Source: an uncultured Burkholderiales bacterium
GTDB taxonomy: Bacteria; Actinomycetota; Acidimicrobiia; IMCC26256; JAGPDB01
Assembly (NCBI GenBank): GCA_964391505.1
Contig: CAYMMG010000005.1
Span: 19,676-83,675 of the forward strand
Length of the DNA stretch: 64,000 bases
Reading direction: 5' to 3'
Positions within the stretch are counted from its first letter, which is position 1. Every line of letters starts with the position of its first letter. Made by a program: the position numbers and the translations under genes. The notes under the pieces were generated by a model, which made no database searches, was not told where the DNA came from, and saw only the letters and a list, made by a program, of their open reading frames with translations. Shown piece by piece: positions 3,756 through 60,456 of the stretch.

Positions 3756-4838
3756 ATGAAGGCAATCATTCTCGTCGGTGGCGAGGGCACACGGATGCGT
3801 CCACTGACGCTTCACACCCCTAAACCTTTGCTTCCCATCGCTAACATTCCGTTTATCGAACGGCAGATCAAGTGGCTTGCACGTCATGGAATTGATGATG
3901 TTATTCTCTCTTTAGGGTACTTACCCGATGCATTTGAAGAATATTTTCACGAGAACCCGATCGAGGGTGTTCGTATTGACTATGCCGTTGAATCAAAACC
4001 TCTCGGAACTGCAGGCGCTGTTAAGTATGCTGCCAAGGAGTGCACGGAGGATTTTGTCGTGTGTAACGGCGATGTGTTAACTGATCTCAACATATCCGAA
4101 CTCGTAACGTTTCATGATTCGCGTTCTTCAATGGCAACACTTGCGTTAACGTATGTAGATGACCCCTCAGCTTTTGGCGTCGTGCCCACTCGAGAAGATG
4201 GTGAAGTTATCGCCTTTGTCGAAAAACCGCCACGTGAAAGCGCGCCTAGTCATTGGATTAACGCAGGTATATATGTATTATCCGCAGATTTCTTAGAGCT
4301 CATTCCTGACGATATGAATGTGTCAATTGAGCGTGAAACATTTCCTTTGGTGCTTCGACAAGGATCAATGTATGCATTGGAATCGGATGCCTACTGGCTC
4401 GATATTGGTACACCGCAACAATATCTTCTGGCGCATAGCGATTATCTGAAAGATCCCATGCGTTTTGGTCGCGACGATAAGTTCCACGAAGTTATTCCCG
4501 GCCTTTTGTCGGATGGAGAAGTTTCATTAGGGGCCAACGTTCGGATTGAATCTCTCTCGATTGCAGGGGACGGTTCAGTTATTGGCGACGACTGTGTCCT
4601 TTCTGCGGCAACGCTGGGTCAGCGTTGTGTCCTTGAAAATAATGTGATTTTGAGTGATTCCGTCTTGATGGCAGGCGTTAAGGTCGGACGTCAATCTCAG
4701 CTTACGTCGAGCATTGTTGGTGAAGCGAGCGATATCGGAAGCGACGTCGAATTTTATGACCATACATTGATAGGCGCGCATGAAAAAATAGCTCCTTCAA
4801 CGCAGCTGCGAGGCGAACGTATAGGTTCTGTTGTATAG
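3756..4838 (+). CDS. sugar-1-phosphate nucleotidylyltransferase (GDP-mannose pyrophosphorylase-like)
   Basis: 360 aa with the N-terminal GGEGTRMRPLT nucleotidyltransferase motif and C-terminal hexapeptide-repeat-like region. Size and position match the actinobacterial mannose-1-P guanylyltransferase. Confidence 0.8.
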   Translation: MKAIILVGGEGTRMRPLTLHTPKPLLPIANIPFIERQIKWLARHGIDDVILSLGYLPDAFEEYFHENPIEGVRIDYAVESKPLGTAGAVKYAAKECTEDFVVCNGDVLTDLNISELVTFHDSRSSMATLALTYVDDPSAFGVVPTREDGEVIAFVEKPPRESAPSHWINAGIYVLSADFLELIPDDMNVSIERETFPLVLRQGSMYALESDAYWLDIGTPQQYLLAHSDYLKDPMRFGRDDKFHEVIPGLLSDGEVSLGANVRIESLSIAGDGSVIGDDCVLSAATLGQRCVLENNVILSDSVLMAGVKVGRQSQLTSSIVGEASDIGSDVEFYDHTLIGAHEKIAPSTQLRGERIGSVV

Positions 4839-4850
4839 AATATCGGCCTT

Positions 4851-5792
4851 ATGCGCATATTAGTAACAGGCGGAGCTGGATTTATTGGCTCGCACCTCGT
4901 AGATCGTCTTCTTGCTGAAGGTCATGATGTCGATGTGATCGATGATCTTTCTACAGGATCCTTGGTGAACCTAACTGACGCGCGAAGAAATAACCAGCGT
5001 AAGTTTTCGTTTCATCGACTCGATATCCGCTCATCTGCTGTTTCAGATACGATTGCTAAATCTCGTCCCGATGTTGTGATGCATCTCGGTGCACAAACTG
5101 ATGTTGCCGCAAGCATTGCAAAACCTGCAATTGATGCAGATATCAATATTGGTGGATCAATCAACGTCCTCGAAGGGTGTGCTCGAGCAAAGGTGGGGAA
5201 AGTCATTTTTGCGTGCACTGCAGGAATTTACGGCGAACCCCAGTCGTTACCTCTTCGCGAAGGCCATCCACTAGTGCCGCTTTCTCCTTACACGGTTTCA
5301 AAAAAAGCAGTCCTTGATTATCTCTACGCGTATCGAGCCACACATGGAGTGGAATATGTTGCTCTTGTTTTAGGCAATGTATACGGTCCGCGTCAAAATG
5401 CCCAGCAAGAAGGTGGAGCAGTCGCTCGTTTTGCGACGCAGATGATAAGTCGAGAACGTCCAACTATTTTTGGTGATGGGACACAGACGAGAGATTTTAT
5501 TTTTGTGGATGATGTTGTTGATGCATTTGTGAGAAGTATCGATCGAGGATCAGGTCTTGCTATGAACATTGGCACAGGCATTTCCACATCTGTACAAAAA
5601 CTCTTTGACCTTATTGCAACGAAAACTTCCTATAAAGATCCCGCTCGCTATGCACCTCGACGCGAAGGAGAAATAACTGATTCTGTGCTCGATTACAAAC
5701 GCGCAGAACTCCATTTGGCTTTTTCTCCGTTTACATCCATCGAAGATGGTATTGGTCGGACTATCGAATGGTACCGAGCACAAGCGCGCTAG
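4851..5792 (+). CDS. NAD-dependent epimerase/dehydratase (UDP-glucose 4-epimerase-like)
   Basis: 313 aa with a TGGAGFIGSH motif and YTVSK Tyr-x3-Lys. Confidence 0.8.
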   Translation: MRILVTGGAGFIGSHLVDRLLAEGHDVDVIDDLSTGSLVNLTDARRNNQRKFSFHRLDIRSSAVSDTIAKSRPDVVMHLGAQTDVAASIAKPAIDADINIGGSINVLEGCARAKVGKVIFACTAGIYGEPQSLPLREGHPLVPLSPYTVSKKAVLDYLYAYRATHGVEYVALVLGNVYGPRQNAQQEGGAVARFATQMISRERPTIFGDGTQTRDFIFVDDVVDAFVRSIDRGSGLAMNIGTGISTSVQKLFDLIATKTSYKDPARYAPRREGEITDSVLDYKRAELHLAFSPFTSIEDGIGRTIEWYRAQAR

Positions 5793-5896
5793 TTGCAGGG
5801 CCCGGCCTTGCAAACAACACTTGGGAAAAATCGATTAATACTTTCTTGTTTCGTTTTGCTACCCATTGGTTGCAAGGCCGGGCCCTGCAACTAGCG
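5787..5896. repeat. 27-bp perfect inverted repeat with 56-bp spacer between convergent genes
   Basis: CGCTAGTTGCAGGGCCCGGCCTTGCAA (5787-5813) pairs with TTGCAAGGCCGGGCCCTGCAACTAGCG (5870-5896). Each arm contains the CGC-TAG end of one of the convergent genes. Confidence 0.9.
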
Positions 5897-6586
5897 AAAA
5901 AGATCGTCTTGAGGATTGCGCACAAGATCAGATCCTTGACCATCGCCACGATATGAAGCAGGCAATCCGCGTATCAGCGCTGCACATGTGCCGGAATCTT
6001 TATGCATGACTAGTTCAGCAGCACCCGCAATTTCATCTGCGACGGCAATCATTGTGGCTGTCAGCTCGTGCCCATAGAAATCTTTCTTGCCTCGAAGATC
6101 GGCGAAAGAGTTTAATCCTGAGTACCCTAACGCGACGTTGGTTTCTCCCATACGGAAAGGTCGACCAAATGTATCGCTCACGATGACAGCAATATCAAAG
6201 CCGGATTTGGCTTGTATCGAGTAGCGCAAACCCTGTGCTGCGCTGTCGACGTCTTTTGGAAGAATCACAACAGTGTTTTCTTCAGTATTGGATTCGTCAA
6301 CTCCTGCATTCGCGCAGATAAATCCGTGATGAGTTTCTGAAATGACAAGAGGTCCTCGTCGTCGAATAATTTTCCTCGATTCTCGTTCAACAATATCTTG
6401 TTTTGTATTTTCGGGTGTGAGAGTTTCAATCCGTCCTCGCGCCTTAGCCACTACTTTGGATGCAACCACCAGGCAATCTGAAGGAAGAAGAGGAAAGTGG
6501 TCGACGAGCTGTCCTGTAATCATTTCCGAGAGATCGTCACCTGGGTGAACATTCCCAACACCAGTAAGCGGAATGATGGAAATCAC
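5891..6586 (-). CDS. cofE: coenzyme F420-0:L-glutamate ligase (CofE domain only)
   Basis: 231 aa with CofE-type motifs: VVASKVVAKARGRI, ANAGVDESN, SDTFGRPFRMGETNVALG. The start overlaps the cofD stop (ATGA-type coupling). Confidence 0.75.
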   Translation of the reverse strand: MISIIPLTGVGNVHPGDDLSEMITGQLVDHFPLLPSDCLVVASKVVAKARGRIETLTPENTKQDIVERESRKIIRRRGPLVISETHHGFICANAGVDESNTEENTVVILPKDVDSAAQGLRYSIQAKSGFDIAVIVSDTFGRPFRMGETNVALGYSGLNSFADLRGKKDFYGHELTATMIAVADEIAGAAELVMHKDSGTCAALIRGLPASYRGDGQGSDLVRNPQDDLFR

Positions 6587-7527
6587 GCACTACGACCTGA
6601 CTGTATTGCACATTGTGCAAGGTTCGTTTGTGCTTGTATCGAGTTCATGATTGTATTTGCTGTGGTGGTAATGATCTCAAGTTTAGAGATAGCTGCGCAA
6701 TGCTGCTCGTCTTGTACGTCGATAATTAATTGAGAAATATACTCTGAATATAACTCGGCGATACCAAGAGATGAAACTTCTCTGTTTTGGTCATCCATAA
6801 TTTTTGCTAGCGGACCTTTGACGGCGTATCCACCAATAATGGGTGAAATTGCTACCACGTTTTGTTTGTTTTTCCTTACAAATGAATCGACTTCATCGAT
6901 CGCAAAGAGAGGAAAAATGGAGAGGTACGGATTAGACGGAGCAATAATAATTCTGTCAGCATTTTCTAGTGCTACTCGAGCATCGGCATGACAGTGTGTA
7001 GGAGCACCTTCGTATGAAATGTCCTTGATGGAAGGCTGACATTTTTCGCGTACAAAATACTCCTGCATTCGTAGAGTCTCGTTTTCCTTTGTGGTAATTG
7101 TAGTGGTCACTTTTTCATCACACATGGGAACGATATCTATATTGGTAATTCCCAAACGAATAGCCAAATCGCGTGTCACGTCGCGCAGAGAAGAGCCATT
7201 TTGTAAGGCGGTGGTGCGCAAGGAATTGAGTGCGAGGTCTTGATCTCCAAGGTTGAACCAGGCGTTTACTCCAAGGGTCCGTAGTGTTTCAACGAAAGTG
7301 AAGGTTTCGTTAGCACGTCCCCAGCCACGCGTTTCATCATTGATGCCGGCTAGATGGTAAAGAATCGAATCGATATCAGGACAGACAAACTGCCCATAGA
7401 AATCGTCATCATCGCCCGTATTGACTATTGCAGTGACATTGAGACCGTCTCCGCGTTCAATAAGTGCATTGATTCCTAAGAGAAATCGAGCTGCACCGAC
7501 ACCACCGCAGAGAACGACGACGTTCAT
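6583..7527 (-). CDS. cofD: 2-phospho-L-lactate (or EPPG) transferase
   Basis: 314 aa with an N-terminal VVVLCGGVGAARFL motif typical of CofD/FbiA. It lies immediately upstream of cofE. Confidence 0.8.
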   Translation of the reverse strand: MNVVVLCGGVGAARFLLGINALIERGDGLNVTAIVNTGDDDDFYGQFVCPDIDSILYHLAGINDETRGWGRANETFTFVETLRTLGVNAWFNLGDQDLALNSLRTTALQNGSSLRDVTRDLAIRLGITNIDIVPMCDEKVTTTITTKENETLRMQEYFVREKCQPSIKDISYEGAPTHCHADARVALENADRIIIAPSNPYLSIFPLFAIDEVDSFVRKNKQNVVAISPIIGGYAVKGPLAKIMDDQNREVSSLGIAELYSEYISQLIIDVQDEQHCAAISKLEIITTTANTIMNSIQAQTNLAQCAIQSGRSA

Positions 7528-7543
7528 ATTGGATAATGATTAT

Positions 7544-7966
7544 TTATGAAACGCGACGTTTTGCTTCGTCAGCGATTTTTTTAGTAGAGGTAATCGCTTG
7601 TTCTGAACAAACCTTCACTTGACGCGCCACACTTGATGCAACTGGTCCGAGATTTGTTGAGACTCGCTCGGCAACATTGTTTGCAGCAGGGATAAAGTGT
7701 GAAGAAACAGTACCGTAAACATTTTCTGCAACAGGTGAGATTCGCCCGGACAGATTGGCGAGAGGAGCGAGCGATTGACCTACTCGATCGCCTGCGTCTT
7801 TAATGCGCGGACTTACGTCGCGGATGACAGGTTCAAAGCGAGCGGATACCTGATCAATGTGAGCGCGTACGGAATCTCGTTTCTTTGAAAGATGTTGAAC
7901 TCCCAGTGCCGCTGCGCCCAAAGCAACATAGGCACCGTCACGAAGATTTGTTTTGATATCAGTCAT
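7544..7966 (-). CDS. hypothetical protein with short P-x-A-x-N type repeats
   Basis: 140-aa ORF that fills the gap upstream of cofD on the same strand. No recognisable domain. Confidence 0.5.
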   Translation of the reverse strand: MTDIKTNLRDGAYVALGAAALGVQHLSKKRDSVRAHIDQVSARFEPVIRDVSPRIKDAGDRVGQSLAPLANLSGRISPVAENVYGTVSSHFIPAANNVAERVSTNLGPVASSVARQVKVCSEQAITSTKKIADEAKRRVS

Positions 7967-8031
7967 ATCTCCAGTCTACACAACGCTGCTTGCAGATGCA
8001 AGCAGATCGTTTGGAGTAGAATGTTCACCTT

Positions 8032-11000
8032 ATGACGATCGAAAAAACCGCCACAGCCGATGGGGATGATGATTCGGAGATGAAACCCCAGAAGTACGGA
8101 CACGATGAAGAGAGTCCCTCATTTGCTTGGCCGACAGTTGTCGCAGTGGTTGTTACCCATAATCCTGGAGATTGGCTTGAACAGTGTTTGAGCTCAATCG
8201 CAAACCAGGAATATCCCGATTTGACCACTTTGGTTGTGGATGTCTGTTCCGATACAGACGTGACGCAACGTGTTGCGCAGGCAATGCCCACAGCATTTGT
8301 TCGCCGTAGCGAAGAAGATATCAATTTTGCCCAAGCTATTAACACGGCTGTTGATTCTATTGAAGGTGCAACATATGTATTGATTTGCCATGACGATGTA
8401 ATCCTCGAATCTGGAGCAATTGCAGAAATGGTCGAAGAGGCATTCCGCTCCAATGCTTCTATTGTTGGCCCCAAGATGATTGATGCCGCTGTTCCCGATC
8501 AGCTTCTTGAAGTTGGAGGTATGATCGACCGCTTTGGAGTTCCTTTCAGCGGCATCGAGTTTGGTGAAGTCGATCAAGGTCAACACGATGGCGTGCGCGA
8601 TGTTTTCTTTGTTTCGAGTGCGGCCATGCTTGTACGTGCAGATCTTTTTCGGGCGCTAGGTGGATTCGACGTTCATTGTTTTCCTGGCGCAGAAGACATC
8701 GACCTCGCATGGCGTGCCCATCTTGTGAGTGCTCGTGTCCTCGTACAGCCTGAGGCCGTAGTGCGTCACCACAAAACAAGCGACCGTCAAAGAAAAGCAC
8801 GTACATCGGCGACAGCAATTGTTGCGCGCCATCGAATGCGCGCAGTGTTGAAAAATGCCTCTGCAGTTTCGTTAGCGTGGATTTTGCCACTTGCTTTTAT
8901 CCTTCACTCTGTCGAAGGAATTGTTTGGTTGTTGCGGGCGGATCCTCGACGTGCATGGCTTTTATTTTCTGGGTGGATATGGAACATTCGTCATCTCGGA
9001 GATACACGCAGTGAGCGCGCAAAAATTCAAAAGACCCGCGAAGTTTCGGACAGAGTAATTTCAACTCACCAAATTGGTGGTTCTGCTCGGATTCGTCGAT
9101 TCTTTACCTCGCTGATAGAAAATCGACAACTGAAAAAATTTACGAATGCTTCCCGAGTATTTGCGACTGAACGGTATTCTCGTCGAACACGTGAGACACC
9201 TATTTATCTAGCTGCTATGGCAGTGTATTTCATTGCCGTGCGTTCATTAATAATTAATGGGATCAGTGGCGTGGGTGAGTTCTCTCGTTGGCCATCGTTT
9301 TCCAGACAAGTCGAGGCTTTGCTTCATGGTGGTCTTCCGGTATCGCATGAACCAATGTTGTCTTCAACATTTGGTCGCCTCATCGCCTTGTGTCTTACTT
9401 TTTTGTGTGGAAATAATCAAGGTTTAGCGCAAACCGTCTTTGTGCTTTCTCTCATTCCTCTCGGAGGTTACGGAGTCCGGCTATTGCTGAAAGAGCGAGC
9501 TATGGGACCGCGATCTATTGCTTTTGCGGCGATTACGTACGGAACTTTTGCGCTAGGCATGCATGCATTTTCACAAGGTGACCTAGGTTCCCTTGTTTTG
9601 CTTGCAGGGCTACCTTATTTTCTGCGTGCACTCAGCAATCGCAATGTGCGCCAGGTTGGGGTCGTAGCAGCAGTAATGATTGCGTTTTATCCTGCAGCGA
9701 TCGTTGTGTGTTTGGTCATTGGTGCAGCATTTGTTTTCATGGGAGATAAATCTGAAACAGATGCTCTTACGGAATCAAAGACACATGATTTTCTACAGAG
9801 AAGTCGAATCGTATTCTTTGCAGGCGTAATTGGCCTTGTTGTCAATTGCGGATTAATCGTCGATTCGATCCGTGCAATCGATCGCAATACAGTCGGCTTG
9901 TCGGAAACGCCACGGGTATTTCGTGACTACTTGTTCTCGCAGAATAGTGTCATGATTGCATTCTATGTTGCGATTGCAATTTGTACGTGTGCGCTTATTG
10001 TTGGTCGTAATGAGCGTACAGGTGAGCTTCGAATCCTTGCAGTGGCAGCTGTCGTTCTTGGAGTTATGGCTTATTCGGCGATTTATTTTGCACAACCAAT
10101 TTTTCAGGCGAGTGCATTGTATAGTGTCATCCAATTAATGGCGGCAGTTTCCGTTGGTGTATGCGCCCACTCCTATACAGATGAAATGAAGTTACGTTCA
10201 TTTGGTATCTTTCATTTTGCTACAACGTTCTCAATTGTCGCTGTGGTGGTGAGTCTCGTGATGAGTATTCCTGTATTAAGAGTAGGAACTTTCTCTTTAC
10301 CGGAACGAAGTTGGTCCAATCAGATAGAAATTAGCCAGAATGCTCGAGTGCTTTACCTAGGAGATGCCGCGGTTCTCCCAGGTCGCAGCGTTCTCGTTCC
10401 CGGGAATAGAAGTTTTTCGTTAACAAGTGAATCTGGGGCTACTCTTTTGTCTTCCTTCACGGGACCTGCATCTTCGCTCGACGGAGATATTCGAGATGTT
10501 TATTCAGCGATATTGTCTGAGCAAACAACCCATGGAGGATTTCTCCTCGCTCGACTGAGTGTCGGGAGTGTAGCGGTGCCTAGTTCGCGTTCTCCTGAGA
10601 GTACGCAACTTGTTACAGATACAAGATTACTTAATGCGCTCGATCGACAGAGCGATCTCATTCGATTGAGAGATCGTAATGGGCTCGTTGTTTATAGGAA
10701 TGCTTCCTTTGCTGAAGGATACCCTCTTGCAGCTTCTGTCGGCAGTCTCTCTCCAACCCGAGTCTTCGAACTGCGTAACCAACAATCCGCGCTTATCTCA
10801 GAACGCCGCGACCAACCCATAAATCCGCTTACATTGGCATCCATTGCTCTATCACTTTTGGTTCTTGTTCTGAGTGTTCTTTGGCCCAGACGTCACAAAC
10901 TGATCTCTAATCGTTCACTTTTACTCACGAGGGCAGTGTCGCGAAGTCATACGGATAGCGAGCAGAACCAGGATGAAACCTTGGCCCCTCTACCGGTTGT

Positions 11001-39985: not shown

Positions 39986-40347
39986 TGGAGGTGGGGGGTT
40001 TCGAAACCCCCGTCCTTTAGACCCATTCGTAGGCCTTCTCCGAGCGCAGTTACCGGTAAGGTTTCGAAACATTTGCCGCCAGTAACTCTGACAAAGTTTC
40101 TAGTCAACTAAATATGTCCTCGTAAGTAGCTAACGCCTTACGGAGCAAGTACCGTGATTGAACCTGATGCGGCGACGGTACCTACCGCTTCAGGCACTAC
40201 TTAAAATTAATTAAGCAGCTAGTGCGTAGACTGAGCTTTCGCTCTCATCGTTTGCATTTATTGTTTTGCACAGACTCTTTAACGACAGTCTGCAACGTCG
40301 GCTCGCTTCTCCTACGGCCAAGTACAAAGTCGAAACCATGCACCCCC
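39986..40347 (-). ncRNA. ssrA: transfer-messenger RNA (tmRNA)
   Basis: The 5' end is GGGGGUGCAUGGUUUCGAC. The 3' end is GGACGGGGGUUUCGAAACCCCCCACCUCC-A. A 7-bp acceptor stem carries G3:U (Ala identity). An internal tag ORF is present. CCA is not encoded. A TACAAT -10-like box lies at 40357-40362 (minus strand). Confidence 0.9.
40210..40254 (-). other. tmRNA tag-peptide reading frame ANDESESSVYALAA + TAA
   Basis: Resume codon GCA at 40254-40252. 14 codons end in the canonical ALAA, followed by UAA. Confidence 0.8.
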
Positions 40348-52385: not shown

Positions 52386-52471
52386 TGGTACGAGCGGAGG
52401 GACTTGAACCCTCACGTCCAATGGACACTAGGACCTAAACCTAGCGCGTCTGCCAATTCCGCCACGCTCGC
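52386..52471 (-). tRNA. tRNA-Leu (anticodon UAG), CCA encoded
   Basis: The reverse complement folds as a cloverleaf. The acceptor is GCGAGCG/CGCUCGU, the anticodon loop UUUAGGU has UAG at positions 34-36, the variable arm is long, the T arm is GAGGGUUCAAGUCCCUC, and the 3' end is ACCA. Confidence 0.9.
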
Positions 52472-55492: not shown

Positions 55493-55927
55493 ATGCAAGA
55501 TGCGATTATAAGAGAAATCATCGTTACGGCAGATAAAGAAAGAGTGTATAAAGCCATTTCTGATCCTGAACAGATTGTCACGTGGTTTCCTGATGTCGTT
55601 GAGGGAAGCCTGGAAGTTGGCGAACGCCCTATTTTCATGTTTACGGAACAGGAACATAAGACTTCTGCATATATTGAAGCAGCCAATCCTTTTGAATACT
55701 TCGCATATCGATGGGTTCCAGGAGGCGCTGGTATCGTTGGCGATGTTTTGACTGTACCTAATACGCTCGTTGAATTCTTTATTGAAGAAACTGAACAAGG
55801 AACAAAGGTCACATTGAAAGAGTCTGGATTTTCGTCCTTGCCTGCTGAAGTAGCACAAGAGAGTTTGGAGCAAAATTCTGGAGGTTGGGAATATATGATG
55901 GGCCGTCTCGAGAAGGTAATGAATTAA
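55493..55927 (+). CDS. SRPBCC/AHSA1-domain protein
   Basis: 144 aa with an Activator-of-Hsp90-ATPase-like pattern (ERVYKAISDPEQIVTWFP...). AAGGAAAGAG RBS. It is paired with ArsR. Confidence 0.7.
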   Translation: MQDAIIREIIVTADKERVYKAISDPEQIVTWFPDVVEGSLEVGERPIFMFTEQEHKTSAYIEAANPFEYFAYRWVPGGAGIVGDVLTVPNTLVEFFIEETEQGTKVTLKESGFSSLPAEVAQESLEQNSGGWEYMMGRLEKVMN

Positions 55928-55932
55928 CACTG

Positions 55933-56244
55933 ATGGCCGTTGCTGAGTTATTTCGAGCTCTCGGAGATCCAACTCGACTCGAAATGGTACGGAGGCTTTC
56001 GAAAGGCACTCCGCACACGATTTCGTCTATTTCAAGTGGGTTGGAAATTAGTCGTCAAGGCGCGCGAAAACATCTTCAGATATTGGTTGATGCAAAGATA
56101 ATCAAGCTCGTTCCCAAAGGACGAGATACCGATGTTCTACTCCTGCGCAATACTCTCGACCAAGGCAGAGCTTTTATCGAGAAACTCGAACTTCAGTGGG
56201 ACCAGCGACTCGATGCCCTGCGACGCTTTGTTGATGAGGAATAA
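55933..56244 (+). CDS. ArsR/SmtB family transcriptional regulator
   Basis: ELFRALGDPTRLEMVRRL HTH signature. ATG 55933 lies just after the SRPBCC stop. Confidence 0.75.
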   Translation: MAVAELFRALGDPTRLEMVRRLSKGTPHTISSISSGLEISRQGARKHLQILVDAKIIKLVPKGRDTDVLLLRNTLDQGRAFIEKLELQWDQRLDALRRFVDEE

Positions 56245-56292: not shown

Positions 56293-57417
56293 ATGCCTGA
56301 TGCCTACCTCACTGCTTTTGGTGAATTTCTGCCCGGCGAACCAGTCTCCAATGAGAACATTGAAGATTACATCGGCATTATCGGTGAGAAAATTTCGAAG
56401 TACAAGAAGATGGTCCTCCGGCAGAACAAAATTCACACTCGCTATTATGCTTCTAACCAAGACGGTAGTTTCGAATATACCGTGGCCGAAATAGCTGCCA
56501 AAGCTATCCTGAATACGATAAAAAACTCAGAAGCCCAAATCGACGATATAGATTTTCTAGCAACAAGTTGTTCAATCCACGATGCAATGCTTCCGGGCTT
56601 GGCCTCCCTGGTTCACTCGAAGTTAGATATCGATGCGATTGATATCGCAAGCTATCAGAGCGTATGTGGAAGTTCAATCATGGCGCTGAGAGGTGCGGTG
56701 AATTCCGTTCGTGTTGGTGAAGTGCAGTTGGCAGCCGTTTCTGGTTCGGAAATTGCAAGCCGCCATTTTCGCCCGACCTTCTATGAAGGAACCGAATATT
56801 TCAAAGAAAATAAAGCGCTTCCGCTCGAACAAGAATTTCTCCGCTATACACTTTCAGATGGTGCTGGAGCAGTGCTTTGCGAATCGCGTCCAAATTCACA
56901 ATCGGTCTCGCTTAAAGTTGAATGGATTAGGGCGCAATCGTTTGCAAACCGTTTTCCTGCCTGCATGATTGGTGGTGCAGTAAAAGAAAACGGTCGCGTC
57001 ATCTCCTGGGGAAACCAAGATTCGCTAGAGTCGGCAATAGAAAAGGGGTGTTTCGTTCTCTCCCAAGACCTGAAGCTTGTCTACGAGATGATACCGGTAT
57101 GGGTCGGACATTACTTGTCGCTTGTTGAAGAAGGCGCGATCGTTCCAGATGAAATTGATCATGTAGTCAGTCATTATTCTTCCGAGAGCCTTAAAACAGA
57201 AGTCGTTAAGCTCCTGGAAAAATCTGGCTCTATGATCGATGAAGATAAATGGTTTAGCAATCTTTCGTATAAAGGAAATACAGGTTCGGCGTCCATTTTT
57301 ATATTGTTGCATGAGCTTTTTTACTCCGGAAAGCTGGTGGAAGGTCAAAAAGTTTTATGCCATGTTCCTGAAAGTGGACAAGCTTTTAATTCGTTCATGC
57401 TTCTGGAGGTCGTATGA
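56293..57417 (+). CDS. beta-ketoacyl-ACP synthase III-like condensing enzyme (FabH/KAS III family)
   Basis: 374 aa. Candidate Cys-His-Asn triad in the expected order (QSVCGSS, VVSHYSS, KGNTGSASI), with a thiolase-fold length. Confidence 0.7.
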   Translation: MPDAYLTAFGEFLPGEPVSNENIEDYIGIIGEKISKYKKMVLRQNKIHTRYYASNQDGSFEYTVAEIAAKAILNTIKNSEAQIDDIDFLATSCSIHDAMLPGLASLVHSKLDIDAIDIASYQSVCGSSIMALRGAVNSVRVGEVQLAAVSGSEIASRHFRPTFYEGTEYFKENKALPLEQEFLRYTLSDGAGAVLCESRPNSQSVSLKVEWIRAQSFANRFPACMIGGAVKENGRVISWGNQDSLESAIEKGCFVLSQDLKLVYEMIPVWVGHYLSLVEEGAIVPDEIDHVVSHYSSESLKTEVVKLLEKSGSMIDEDKWFSNLSYKGNTGSASIFILLHELFYSGKLVEGQKVLCHVPESGQAFNSFMLLEVV

Positions 57418-58085
57418 GTCAACCCAGCGAAATGGTTATGCGCAATCTCCTCATCGTTTGGACGGATTTTGAAAGCCGTTTGAACACAGTTCCTCTATTG
57501 AAAAAACTGTCGAATGGCCGCTTTACTCTAGAGGACTACAAACTTCTCTTGATCAACCACCGTCAACAAGTTGTTGAAGGATCCCGGTGGATATCTCGTG
57601 CAGCATCGAGCATCACCTCAGATTACTTAGAGCTGCGCTCGACTTTTCTCTCACACAGCATTACTGAACATCGTGACTATGAAATGCTGGAGTGGCAATA
57701 TGTTGAGATCGGTGGTTCGCTCGACGAAATACGGCAAGCTCCCAAAAATATTGGCACGGAAATCTTTCATTCGTACATGTTTCAGCAATCCAGTATGGAA
57801 AATCCGTTTCAACTACTTGGTTCGATGTTCATTATTGAAGGCTTGGGTCAGAGAAAAGCTAAATCGTGGGGCATTGAAATAAAGGAACAGCTCAAACTGA
57901 GTGATGCCGCTGTAGAGTTCTATGTGTACCACGGAGAGAATGACCCACAGCATATGGAAGAGTTCGATACGGCTTTGAATTCCGGGATTTTGGAAATTGA
58001 AGGTATGGGAGAGAAAATAGTTAAAACTGCAAAAATTACTGCATTGCTATACGAGTTGCAGTTGCGTGAAATAGGAAATTACTGA
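57414..58085 (+). CDS. heme-oxygenase-like fold, iron-containing redox enzyme family candidate
   Basis: 223 aa, all-helical, with Glu/His-containing segments VVEG, ITEHRDYE, IIEG and HGENDPQH. ATGA overlap with the KAS III-like gene. The assignment is by pattern only. Confidence 0.5.
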   Translation: MSQPSEMVMRNLLIVWTDFESRLNTVPLLKKLSNGRFTLEDYKLLLINHRQQVVEGSRWISRAASSITSDYLELRSTFLSHSITEHRDYEMLEWQYVEIGGSLDEIRQAPKNIGTEIFHSYMFQQSSMENPFQLLGSMFIIEGLGQRKAKSWGIEIKEQLKLSDAAVEFYVYHGENDPQHMEEFDTALNSGILEIEGMGEKIVKTAKITALLYELQLREIGNY

Positions 58086-58669
58086 TGGATAACGATACCG
58101 AAGTTCTCATTCTCAATTTTATTCTGTTCGTTATCCTTCCCTTGTGGGGGCTATCAGGTTTATTTGACTGGTGGTGCCACAAAAAATCCGACATTGAAAA
58201 GACTTCAGGATTGAAGGAATCATTAATTCATGCTTTGATGGGTGCCCAAATCGGGATCGCTTTTATTTTGGGAATCTTTTTCGAACTTACTGTTTTAACT
58301 TATTTAATTATGTTTATATGTTTAGTTATGCATGAAGTTGTAGCGCATTGGGACGTGAGATATTCTCAACCGAAACGCAATATTACAATTTGGGAAATGC
58401 ATGCGCACAACTACTTAGGCACGATCCCTTTGTATCTTTTCGCGCTCATCAGCGTTTTGGGATGGGAGGTTGTTACAAAAACTTTGTCCTTAGCGTGGAG
58501 TGATTCTTTTGCTTTCCGATTCCGTGACACGCCCATTGGTGGTGCTCGTTACTATGTCATTTATGGAATATTCATCTCTTTAGTGTGTGTTTTTCCATAT
58601 GTTTCCGAGGTGCTACGTTGTTGGCGTTACGAGAAGGAGGTTAAGGCAAATGGGAATATCGTTTCGTAA
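58085..58669 (+). CDS. His-rich integral membrane protein of unknown function
   Basis: 194 aa with about 5 TM segments and conserved-looking His clusters WWCHKK, LIHALMG, MHEVVAHWD and EMHAHNY. TGATG overlap with the upstream gene. Confidence 0.5.
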   Translation: MDNDTEVLILNFILFVILPLWGLSGLFDWWCHKKSDIEKTSGLKESLIHALMGAQIGIAFILGIFFELTVLTYLIMFICLVMHEVVAHWDVRYSQPKRNITIWEMHAHNYLGTIPLYLFALISVLGWEVVTKTLSLAWSDSFAFRFRDTPIGGARYYVIYGIFISLVCVFPYVSEVLRCWRYEKEVKANGNIVS

Positions 58670-59489
58670 ATTTGATACCCCGTTCATTACCGCAATTCGA
58701 AGAGACCGATCACTTCCTATTGCTGACGTCGCGGTTGATATGTGGATCAATGATCTAAAAGGCGGATTGCGTTGGGCTGTCATGCCGGTACTGCGTCTTA
58801 TTTTTGGGGCTACTCTTTATCTCACATGGTTTGTTAAGCGGTTGTCACCGATCCAATTTAATTCTCACAAAAACTTGCAGCGTCTCATATGTTGGTTCTG
58901 CACCTATTTCGTAACTCCTGAAGCGAACTATTTGATACTGAGACATTTCTGGACCGAATCAAATATCTTGAACTTTCTTATTGATAACGATGAGAAAGAT
59001 GCCAACATTAAACCTGTCCAACTTTATCCGGCAAAAATTCGTGAAATGATGGCCGCTACCTTTGTAGATCACGATCAAGAGTTGTTTCGATACTTTAATG
59101 ATTCGCCACCGCAACCTCAGGCGCTCATTAAAGAAGGTGACATTAACTGGGAGCATTGGAAAGAGATTCAACTTGATGGTGAAGTATTGAAACGAAAGTT
59201 CACTCAACGCATCGACTTTGAAACTGCTCATGTTCTATTTATGTGTATCTTTTGTTTTTTCTTAACTGCAGATGAATATCGCGGAGCAATCAATGGCTTC
59301 AATCTTGATCAGTCGATAGCCATACGTATCGGTGCGCTCATCGGAGATGACTCACTCGTTGAATACGCGTATAACAAGAATCCTCTATATTTGGTAGGAC
59401 CAACTGACCTTACTCGCAGGTTCATCCTTCACGGATTCTTTACTGAATATATGCATGAACGCTTATTGCAATATAAGAATGGTTCGTAG
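58650..59489 (+). CDS. hypothetical membrane-associated protein
   Basis: 279 aa starting from ATG 58650, preceded by a GAAGGAGG RBS. It overlaps the end of the upstream gene by 20 nt and has two hydrophobic segments. Confidence 0.5.
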   Translation: MGISFRKFDTPFITAIRRDRSLPIADVAVDMWINDLKGGLRWAVMPVLRLIFGATLYLTWFVKRLSPIQFNSHKNLQRLICWFCTYFVTPEANYLILRHFWTESNILNFLIDNDEKDANIKPVQLYPAKIREMMAATFVDHDQELFRYFNDSPPQPQALIKEGDINWEHWKEIQLDGEVLKRKFTQRIDFETAHVLFMCIFCFFLTADEYRGAINGFNLDQSIAIRIGALIGDDSLVEYAYNKNPLYLVGPTDLTRRFILHGFFTEYMHERLLQYKNGS

Positions 59490-59533: not shown

Positions 59534-59911
59534 TCATTTAGCTGCTTTCTTGGCCTCGTTGGTTTTTACTATTTCTCTGAGAATCTTTTTTATTTCAGCG
59601 GTCGGTACTTTTTGGTCGTACTTAATTTGTATGGTCCGTTTTAAAACGGTGTAGCCTTTTTTCTCAAGAGTTTTACGAATTTCGGGATCGATCTCATCGC
59701 ACCAAGGGCCAAAACTTGCATGATTCTTGAATGCATCAAATCCGCCGACCTGACCTTCGTACTTATAGAAAGGCACGTTCCAACTTATTCCTTCTTGTAC
59801 GTTAGGAATAGTGGACTTCATTATTTCCCGCAGTTCTTCCAGGTGGGAGCGTGCTTCTTCAGGTGCATTGGAGATGTAATCATCAACATCTTTTGGCTTT
59901 GACTTCGGCAT
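59534..59911 (-). CDS. DUF1801 (YdhG-like) domain protein
   Basis: 125 aa with DVDDYISNAPEEARSHLEELREIM...ISWNVPFY, the usual DUF1801 pattern. Confidence 0.65.
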   Translation of the reverse strand: MPKSKPKDVDDYISNAPEEARSHLEELREIMKSTIPNVQEGISWNVPFYKYEGQVGGFDAFKNHASFGPWCDEIDPEIRKTLEKKGYTVLKRTIQIKYDQKVPTAEIKKILREIVKTNEAKKAAK

Positions 59912-60066: not shown

Positions 60067-60456
60067 ATGAACGAAGAAATCAGAAATTACAACAGAAATC
60101 TATCTAAACAGGATCGTGAAATTTGTGTATTGCTCGCAACCGAAATCGATCGCAAACTTCCTGATGCCGAAAACAAAATATGGCATGCTCACCCGGTCTG
60201 GTTTTTAGACGGCAACCCTATTGTGGGCTACAGCAAACTTAAAGATTCTGTTCGTTTGTTATTTTGGAGTGGCCAATCTTTCGACGAAAATTCTCTAGAA
60301 GTCGAAGGAAGCTTTAAGGCAGCAGAGAAGCGTTATACCACTGTCGATGAAGTCAAAAAACGTGAGCTGGGGCGATGGCTTACAAAATCACGAGATATTC
60401 AGTGGGATTACAAAAACATTGTCAAACGAAAAGGCGTGTTGAAGCGGATTAAGTAG
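60067..60456 (+). CDS. DUF1801-like domain protein
   Basis: 129 aa with a KIWHAHPVWFLDGNPIVGYSKLKDSVRLLFW pattern. Confidence 0.55.
   Translation: MNEEIRNYNRNLSKQDREICVLLATEIDRKLPDAENKIWHAHPVWFLDGNPIVGYSKLKDSVRLLFWSGQSFDENSLEVEGSFKAAEKRYTTVDEVKKRELGRWLTKSRDIQWDYKNIVKRKGVLKRIK

Follow-up and report, generated by a model that had tools for sequence, protein, structure and literature searches.

We found that a four-gene operon at positions 56293-59489 of the window (the whole 64,000-nucleotide stretch of uncultured Acidimicrobiia DNA analysed here) is one copy of a cassette that moves through genomes as a self-contained unit. The operon encodes a β-ketosynthase related to the StlD/DarB family (gene 1), a haem-oxygenase-like dimetal oxidase (HDO; gene 2), a membrane protein of an unnamed family with five transmembrane (TM) helices (gene 3) and a protein of the DUF6999 family (gene 4). 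From this combination we infer a self-contained, O2-dependent biosynthetic pathway for a fatty-acid-derived small molecule, a reading that we consider evenly balanced between right and wrong.

A four-gene cassette conserved as a unit

DUF6999 was present in 387 genomes in a scan of one genome per species. We searched a sample of 85 loci (the best 80 and five others) for the four genes with tblastn, and all four were adjacent in 80 of them, in Actinomycetota, Gammaproteobacteria and Myxococcota; most of the exceptions were contig ends. The first-pass annotation, made from the sequence alone, had proposed that co-occurrence of the four families be looked for in other genomes, and it is borne out by these loci. 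The order gene 3-gene 1-gene 2-gene 4 prevailed (72 loci: Rheinheimera, Colwellia, Shewanella, Halomonas/Billgrantia, Nitrincola, Woeseiaceae, Steroidobacteraceae, Myxococcota and Polyangiaceae), while gene 1-gene 2-gene 3-gene 4 was found in 7 loci of an Actinomycetota/Acidimicrobiia clade that includes the window. Clustering of all open reading frames (ORFs) flanking the cassette gave no fifth conserved family, be it an acyl carrier protein (ACP), ligase, transporter or regulator; the next commonest neighbour family occurred in 18 loci only and reflects lineage synteny. Neither an ACP, nor an acyl ligase, nor a DarA-type aromatase accompanies the cassette.

The four genes in the window, all on the forward strand, form a real, translationally coupled operon. 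Gene 1 (56293-57417, 374 aa) and gene 2 (57414-58085, 223 aa) meet at a junction (57405-57417) at which GGAGG (57405-57409) is followed by an ATGA stop/start overlap (57414-57417). Gene 2 and gene 3 (58085-58669, 194 aa) share a TGATG stop/start overlap (58083-58087). Gene 4 (58650-59489, 279 aa counted from its ATG) overlaps gene 3 by 20 nucleotides (nt), from its ATG at 58650 to the gene 3 TAA at 58667-58669; its ribosome-binding site GAAGGAGG (58633-58640) lies within the 3' end of gene 3, 9 nt 5' of that ATG, and its stop is a TAG at 59487-59489. Each of these junctions was read directly in the sequence, as the first-pass annotation had described them. The start Met of gene 4 is the same as in its homologues, and an identical 20-nt overlap is present in the gene calls of two relatives (loci L002 and L005).

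Look-ups by exact sequence gave no record for the window's own proteins. In RefSeq, the cassette on the chromid of a cultured host, Pseudoalteromonas sp. THAF3, is annotated as hypothetical, beta-ketoacyl-ACP synthase III, iron-containing redox enzyme family protein and hypothetical. Another copy (locus L008), from a metagenome-assembled genome (MAG) labelled ‘uncultured Burkholderiales’, is of the actinobacterial type, with the order gene 1-gene 2-gene 3-gene 4 and 70-81% identity to the window; it represents either a binning error or a recent inter-phylum transfer.

The four encoded proteins

Gene 1 matched the NCBIfam model NF005293 (StlD/DarB family beta-ketosynthase) over residues 4-374 (E 1.7e-103, 346.7 bits), and its best solved relative was Photorhabdus StlD (5gk0), aligned end to end at E 1.5e-62. 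The StlD residues Cys126, Glu154 and His302 correspond to C125, E153 and H294 of gene 1, and none of the three varies in an alignment of 21 sequences made up of StlD, gene 1 and 19 cassette ketosynthases. Asn329 falls within a KGNTGSAS motif common to gene 1 and StlD, the only two proteins compared at this position. The predicted catalytic residues of gene 1 are Cys125, Glu153, His294 and Asn329. Mori et al. are said to have described Glu154 of StlD, in 2016, as the base for Michael addition. As FabH carries Asp at the position of Glu153, this residue is only weakly diagnostic of the StlD/DarB type. The overall likeness of gene 1 to StlD and DarB points to a head-to-head condensation.

The cassette ketosynthases nevertheless stand outside the StlD/DarB family proper. 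The curated cut-off of NF005293 is 450 bits and that of the DarB exception model 550 bits; gene 1 scored 305.6 bits on the latter, and seven other cassette ketosynthases scored 343-397 bits on the former and 288-350 bits on the latter, compared with 599.8 bits on the StlD/DarB model for a control ketosynthase from a canonical dar-like locus. With scores below both the cut-off and the control, we regard them as the nearest outgroup of StlD/DarB, and not as members by the NCBI criterion. Gene 1 shares 34% identity with StlD, compared with 36-39% for cassette ketosynthases of Gammaproteobacteria and 49-51% for those of Alphaproteobacteria.

The earlier KAS III-like reading of gene 1 held up and can be refined: Cys, His and Asn are kept in FabH order, and the nearest family is StlD/DarB, not FabH (347 versus 62-74 bits). 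This bears on the possibility that gene 1 is the housekeeping FabH and that the operon serves ordinary fatty-acid initiation. The residue order would fit, as would the name ‘beta-ketoacyl-ACP synthase III’ given to homologues by the Prokaryotic Genome Annotation Pipeline (PGAP). But the FabH models TIGR00747 and PRK09352 gave only 62.3 bits (cut-off 292.1) and 73.9 bits (cut-off 249), FabH structures matched at E 1.7e-8 or weaker, against 1e-62 for StlD, and gene 1 was always accompanied by the HDO and DUF6999 and never by fab genes. We rejected this possibility on the model scores; it is extremely improbable and effectively refuted.

Gene 2 matched Pfam PF14518 (Haem_oxygenas_2) with 32.1 bits (gathering score 28.9) over residues 123-213 only. 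A profile of its family (21 sequences) matched 3dde in the PDB at E 2.6e-9; this closest solved relative is an uncharacterised structural-genomics protein with a haem-oxygenase-like fold. The HDO acetylenase MboA was matched at E 0.026. The protein is all-helical, with about 220 aa and no hydrophobic segment by hydropathy, and its invariant residues are E55, H81, E85, H86, D88, E93, E142, H173, D177 and H180. The crystallographic ligands of MboA are E86, H89, E143, H172, D176 and H181 (PMC13185094). E85, E142 and H173-x3-D177-x2-H180 of gene 2 fall on ligand positions of MboA (E86, E143 and H181) and of 3dde (ExxH and HxxxDxxH), such that five of the six canonical HDO positions are filled as expected and the sixth is Asp. 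Gene 2 thus resembles the HDOs UndA, BesC, SznF, CADD, AetD and MboA in its PF14518 match, its size and helical make-up, its HxxxDxxH motif and its two core Glu residues, but differs from them in the first-helix motif, which is H81-x3-E85-H86-x-D88 instead of ExxH. These alignments show gene 2 to be a predicted HDO with a near-complete dimetal ligand set, as the first-pass annotation had supposed when it compared the protein with di-iron oxidases and suggested a check of its ligands. Of the three conditions that this annotation had named as refuting it, two, a lack of co-occurrence of the four families and a lack of aligned ligands in gene 2, did not refute it, and its reading of the genes was supported overall.

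Gene 3 had no match at E<=1 in Pfam or NCBIfam. Its AlphaFold2 (AF2) model, built from a 24-sequence alignment, has five long helices (mean predicted local distance difference test score, pLDDT, 94.4), in concordance with hydropathy, and the protein is accordingly the membrane protein of about five TM helices with His clusters that had been described before. Some 11 charged or His residues within or beside the TM helices are invariant (D28, H32, E45, H49, H83, D90, R98, E104, H106, H108 and E175); judging from the helix boundaries and Lys/Arg-rich loops of the model, all of them would lie at cytoplasmic helix ends. Foldseek found nothing significant in the PDB (best E 0.43, no desaturase among the matches), and a hidden Markov model (HMM) search of PDB sequences gave nothing relevant.

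By analogy only, gene 3 recalls the membrane His-box di-iron enzymes (desaturases and hydroxylases, AlkB, UndB and CarF/TMEM189): it is likewise small and polytopic, carries His and carboxylate residues at cytoplasmic TM ends and adjoins an O2-activating enzyme in a lipid-related operon. Its motifs (DxxxH, ExxxH, HExxxH and ExHxH, with further carboxylates) differ from the HX3-4H and HX2-3HH His-boxes, with no sequence or fold match between them. We rejected membership of the His-box desaturase/hydroxylase group, as there was neither a Pfam match (FA_desaturase or FA_hydroxylase) or NCBIfam match nor a PDB fold match (SCD1, Scs7p or AlkB).

A profile search of 1.84 billion representatives placed 1065 clusters (at 50% identity, E <= 1e-3) in the gene 3 family. 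The best 150 representatives were all of about 100-310 aa, and the ten that were scanned had no significant Pfam domain. A distant subfamily from soil and other metagenomes (loci L094-L173) has an N-terminal extension of 45-70 aa and keeps the D/H/E/H/H/D/R/E/H/E core; in 0 of these 80 metagenome loci was a ketosynthase, HDO or DUF6999 gene nearby, and no neighbour was conserved. NCBI and UniRef label several gene 3 homologues (P0126, P0132, P0145, P0157 and others) ‘diguanylate cyclase’. This identity was rejected, as gene 3 is an all-TM protein of about 190 aa with no GGDEF domain, and no fusions were seen in the 150 best representatives; from these sequences, the name looks like a propagated misannotation.

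Gene 4, in which no recognisable domain had been seen in the first pass, proved to match Pfam PF22523 (DUF6999) over almost its full length (model positions 5-275 of 275; E 6.6e-85, 284.9 bits, above the gathering score). Among its 772 homologues, identity remains as high as about 55% in Gammaproteobacteria. No other protein of the cassette is so well conserved: between Actinomycetota and Gammaproteobacteria, identity is 55% for DUF6999 and 37% for the ketosynthase. The AF2 model is all-helical (pLDDT 83.8), and two marginally hydrophobic helices (about 44-62 and 188-206) indicate that the protein is probably membrane-associated. HMM searches of the PDB gave no match; the top Foldseek matches (TenA, ferritin, PolF and HrmI) were insignificant, with E of at least 0.88 and a TM-score of about 0.14, and were rejected. 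The idea that gene 4 is a diverged copy of the gene 2 HDO was also discarded, as hhalign found nothing. In DUF6999 proteins of the type linked to gene 3, the invariant polar residues are H73, E91, H99, E103, H141, D142, E191, H194, E209, D220, H261 and E266.

Variants of the cassette separate its core from gene 3. Beyond its own clade, gene 1 is most closely related to ketosynthases of marine Alphaproteobacteria (50-56% identity), and contigs of these bacteria (L086-L093) carry the ketosynthase, HDO and DUF6999 genes in that order, without gene 3 by tblastn. Identity of these three-gene loci to the window is 50% for the ketosynthase and 61% for the HDO, but only 25-27% for DUF6999, which has lost E103, E191 and H194. 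Seven residues (H99, H141, D142, D189, D220, H261 and E266; three His and four carboxylates) are invariant across both DUF6999 subtypes. As the loci that lack gene 3 carry only this divergent DUF6999, gene 3 and the gene 4 type of DUF6999 go together, a sequence pattern which suggests that genes 3 and 4 interact. The conserved core thus consists of ketosynthase, HDO and DUF6999, to which gene 3 is added only alongside one of the DUF6999 subtypes.

Two three-gene versions are flanked by a cytochrome P450 gene, in keeping with a part in oxidative tailoring for the member that varies. In L087, an alpha/beta-hydrolase gene lies upstream and the P450 gene overlaps the DUF6999 stop at the 3' end. 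In L175, on plasmid pNFSY08 of Nostoc flagelliforme CCNUN1 (about 3900-8450), the order is P450-ketosynthase-HDO-DUF6999, with a ketosynthase 41% identical to gene 1. Here, the HDO was found in two tblastn pieces, DUF6999 was represented by residues 15-160 only, and all three cassette genes are absent from the PLSDB gene table; L175 is probably a decaying copy. It may belong to the cyanobacterial clades of DarB homologues lacking DarA that are described in parts of a 2019 review (PMC6836626).

That gene 3 can be dispensed with in these loci, that its family is mostly solitary and that neither gene 3 nor gene 4 has detectable homology to enzymes would fit an explanation in which only the ketosynthase and HDO are biosynthetic, with genes 3 and 4 acting as a membrane anchor or scaffold, an exporter, a self-protection factor or a product sensor. 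DUF6999, however, is the most conserved protein of the set, its three His and four Asp/Glu residues are retained across very divergent subtypes, and the invariant charged and His residues of gene 3 cluster in or near its TM helices. Conservation of this kind typically marks metal or active sites and not scaffolds, and we consider the non-catalytic explanation unlikely.

A candidate DarA-less pathway

To our knowledge, DarB/StlD-type ketosynthases are known only together with DarA-type aromatases, and we know of no described Dar or Stl cluster that contains an HDO, DUF6999 or a His-rich membrane protein. DarB/StlD and DarA together give resorcinols, stilbenes, flexirubin building blocks and quorum-sensing signals. 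In the canonical systems, the ketosynthase is paired with the aromatase (PMC6836626 and PMC13192835). The dialkylresorcinol and stilbene pathways DarAB(C) and StlCD (of Pseudomonas, Photorhabdus and Chitinophaga, and the bartoloside BrtCD) resemble the cassette in a ketosynthase that is alike from end to end and in which the catalytic Cys, Glu, His and Asn are kept; they differ in having an aromatase, of which there is none in the cassette loci, and in their ketosynthase score, which is about 600 bits for a true member against 343-397 bits for the cassette.

We used a control locus to look for a DarA relative. On a Burkholderia pseudomallei plasmid (L176, 3030-5427), found with StlD as the query, a gene for a 318-aa protein is followed by the ketosynthase gene and then by acpP. 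The 318-aa protein shares 35% identity (E 7e-49) with the protein encoded beside the ketosynthase of a Streptomyces plasmid locus (L178); from its position and conservation, we infer that this protein is DarA. The control locus is flanked by integrases and a transposase and lies on a conjugative plasmid, and the DarA-type protein of L176 and L178 is annotated ‘hypothetical protein’ and matches no NCBIfam model. With the L176 protein or its Streptomyces homologue as the query, tblastn gave no match at E<=1e-3 in any cassette locus or in the window, and in BLASTP against genes 2-4 all E values exceeded 2. With no relative of the DarA-type protein in the window or the cassette loci, the cassette truly lacks DarA.

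We view the cassette as a candidate pathway of DarB-type condensation in which the partners are new. In the scheme that we propose, gene 1 would draw two acyl thioesters, a beta-ketoacyl and a 2-enoyl, from primary fatty-acid metabolism and would join them head-to-head by Michael addition and Claisen cyclisation, as StlD/DarB do, to give a carboxy-dialkyl-cyclohexanedione. The HDO would replace DarA/StlC: the carboxylate would be bound at the dimetal site and lost in an O2-dependent oxidative decarboxylation, formally like that of UndA. This step would turn the ring into that of an aromatic dialkylresorcinol, unless the HDO oxidises it in another way. At the cytoplasmic face of the membrane, DUF6999 and gene 3 would serve as metal-dependent components for tailoring, release or electron transfer, and the pathway would end in a lipid of the resorcinol, hydroquinone or quinone-like type that resides in the membrane.

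Two published observations suggest that the HDO would act on the carboxylated ketosynthase product: HDO substrates typically ligate Fe1 through a carboxylate (PMC13185094), and the carboxy-cyclohexanedione is the substrate that DarA/StlC aromatise with decarboxylation, as set out in the sections of PMC6836626 on these enzymes. The same sections note that the brt and putative microcarbonin clusters likewise need no dedicated ACP if their substrates come from primary metabolism.

Several observations weigh against this scheme. Every cassette ketosynthase that was scored lies under the NCBI StlD/DarB cut-off, and at 34-41% identity these proteins are as distant from StlD as the actinobacterial versions are from the gammaproteobacterial ones; the low scores and this distance together make a different condensation outcome possible. 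In gene 2, the canonical ExxH His of HDOs is replaced by an invariant Asp88, although the invariant H86 and H81 nearby could, from the alignment, substitute for it. Because the predicted folds of genes 3 and 4 match nothing solved, the argument that they are enzymes comes down to residue conservation, and the solitary occurrence of the wider gene 3 family implies that the role of gene 3 is not intrinsically tied to the pathway.

A different condensation could take the form of a non-cyclising head-to-head Claisen reaction, as by OleA and NocG, or of pyrone formation, as by PpyS, CorB and MxnB; the HDO would then perform a C-C cleavage or decarboxylation of the UndA/BesC type, and a ketone, an alkene-type hydrocarbon or a pyrone would result. 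This would accord with the below-cut-off scores, with the non-decarboxylative Claisen condensation carried out by NocG, a related ketosynthase, and with the action of UndA, the founding HDO, on fatty acids; the 2019 review, in its passages on DarA-less DarB homologues, argues likewise (PMC6836626). Against it, no characterised protein is closer to gene 1 over its full length than StlD and DarB, and the Glu base, Cys and His are invariant, albeit that the Glu is weakly diagnostic given the Asp of FabH. We hold such chemistry to be improbable, if a little less so than non-catalytic roles for genes 3 and 4.

Returning to the scheme with cyclisation and an HDO in place of DarA, its boldest form is a tentative proposal, which we think rather more likely to be wrong than right: a widespread and so far undescribed O2-dependent route, leading to a redox-active dialkyl-aromatic or to membrane lipids of a new class, in which DUF6999 and the gene 3 family would be two new membrane-associated dimetal (Fe/Mn) enzyme families with folds outside the PDB.

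Another published parallel may lie in the cyanobacterial DarA-less DarB homologues, which, in the account of Martins et al. 2019 (PMC6836626), are also aromatase-free and lie in small clusters. The passages of that review on these homologues list them as an open problem, and they name neither HDO nor DUF6999 partners nor a spread beyond cyanobacteria. In the literature that we searched, the coverage of which was incomplete, there was no relevant paper on DUF6999, on DarB/StlD together with an HDO or on HDO neighbourhoods with a ketoacyl synthase; no characterised HDO partnered with a ketosynthase was found, nor any description of the gene combination, in line with the initial impression that this is not a described pathway.

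Genomic setting and significance

A tRNA-Leu(TAG) gene (52386-52471, reverse strand) lies upstream of the operon, separated from it by 3.8 kb and seven ORFs. The GC content of the operon is 0.427, compared with 0.460 +/- 0.015 in 3.2-kb tiles of the window (7.5th percentile), and that of the entire 55-64 kb stretch, the last 9 kb of the window, is 0.425. We found no flanking repeats around the operon and no signs of mobile elements among the neighbouring ORFs that were scanned. The neighbours (Ldh_2, class-III aminotransferase, GNAT, CSD, ArsR/AHSA1 and DUF1801) recur, differently ordered, around the cassette of related Actinomycetota contigs. The accessory character that the first-pass annotation saw in the stretch after tRNA-Leu is thus only weakly supported. 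A genomic island at tRNA-Leu was rejected, as repeats and mobility genes were not found and the GC dip was only mild. A defence system was rejected too: PADLOC models gave no match to the four proteins at E<=0.01.

Just upstream of the operon, an AHSA1/SRPBCC-family gene (55493-55927) and an ArsR-type helix-turn-helix regulator gene (55885-56244) overlap by 43 nt, and the pair ends 48 nt before gene 1. As they are not conserved beside the cassette in relatives, they are probably an independent pair. Directly downstream lie two DUF1801 paralogues (59534-59911, reverse strand; 60067-60456, forward strand), and DUF1801 genes are also found 3' of the cassette in an Acidimicrobiia MAG locus (L005, 8853-9865); this adjacency reflects lineage synteny, and nothing points to a link in function. 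Elsewhere in the window, a transfer-messenger RNA gene (39986-40347, reverse strand) encodes the tag peptide ANDESESSVYALAA.

The cassette is compact (3-4 genes, about 3.2 kb), and its substrates are likely to come from host fatty-acid metabolism. Its hosts, mostly marine and soil bacteria, include the cultivable, genetically tractable marine genera Rheinheimera, Colwellia, Shewanella, Halomonas/Billgrantia, Nitrincola and Pseudoalteromonas. Identification of the product would give a function to DUF6999 and to an unnamed membrane protein family of more than 1000 clusters, would probably extend the repertoire of HDOs by a new type of reaction, and would explain the DarA-less DarB clades flagged in the alkylresorcinol literature.

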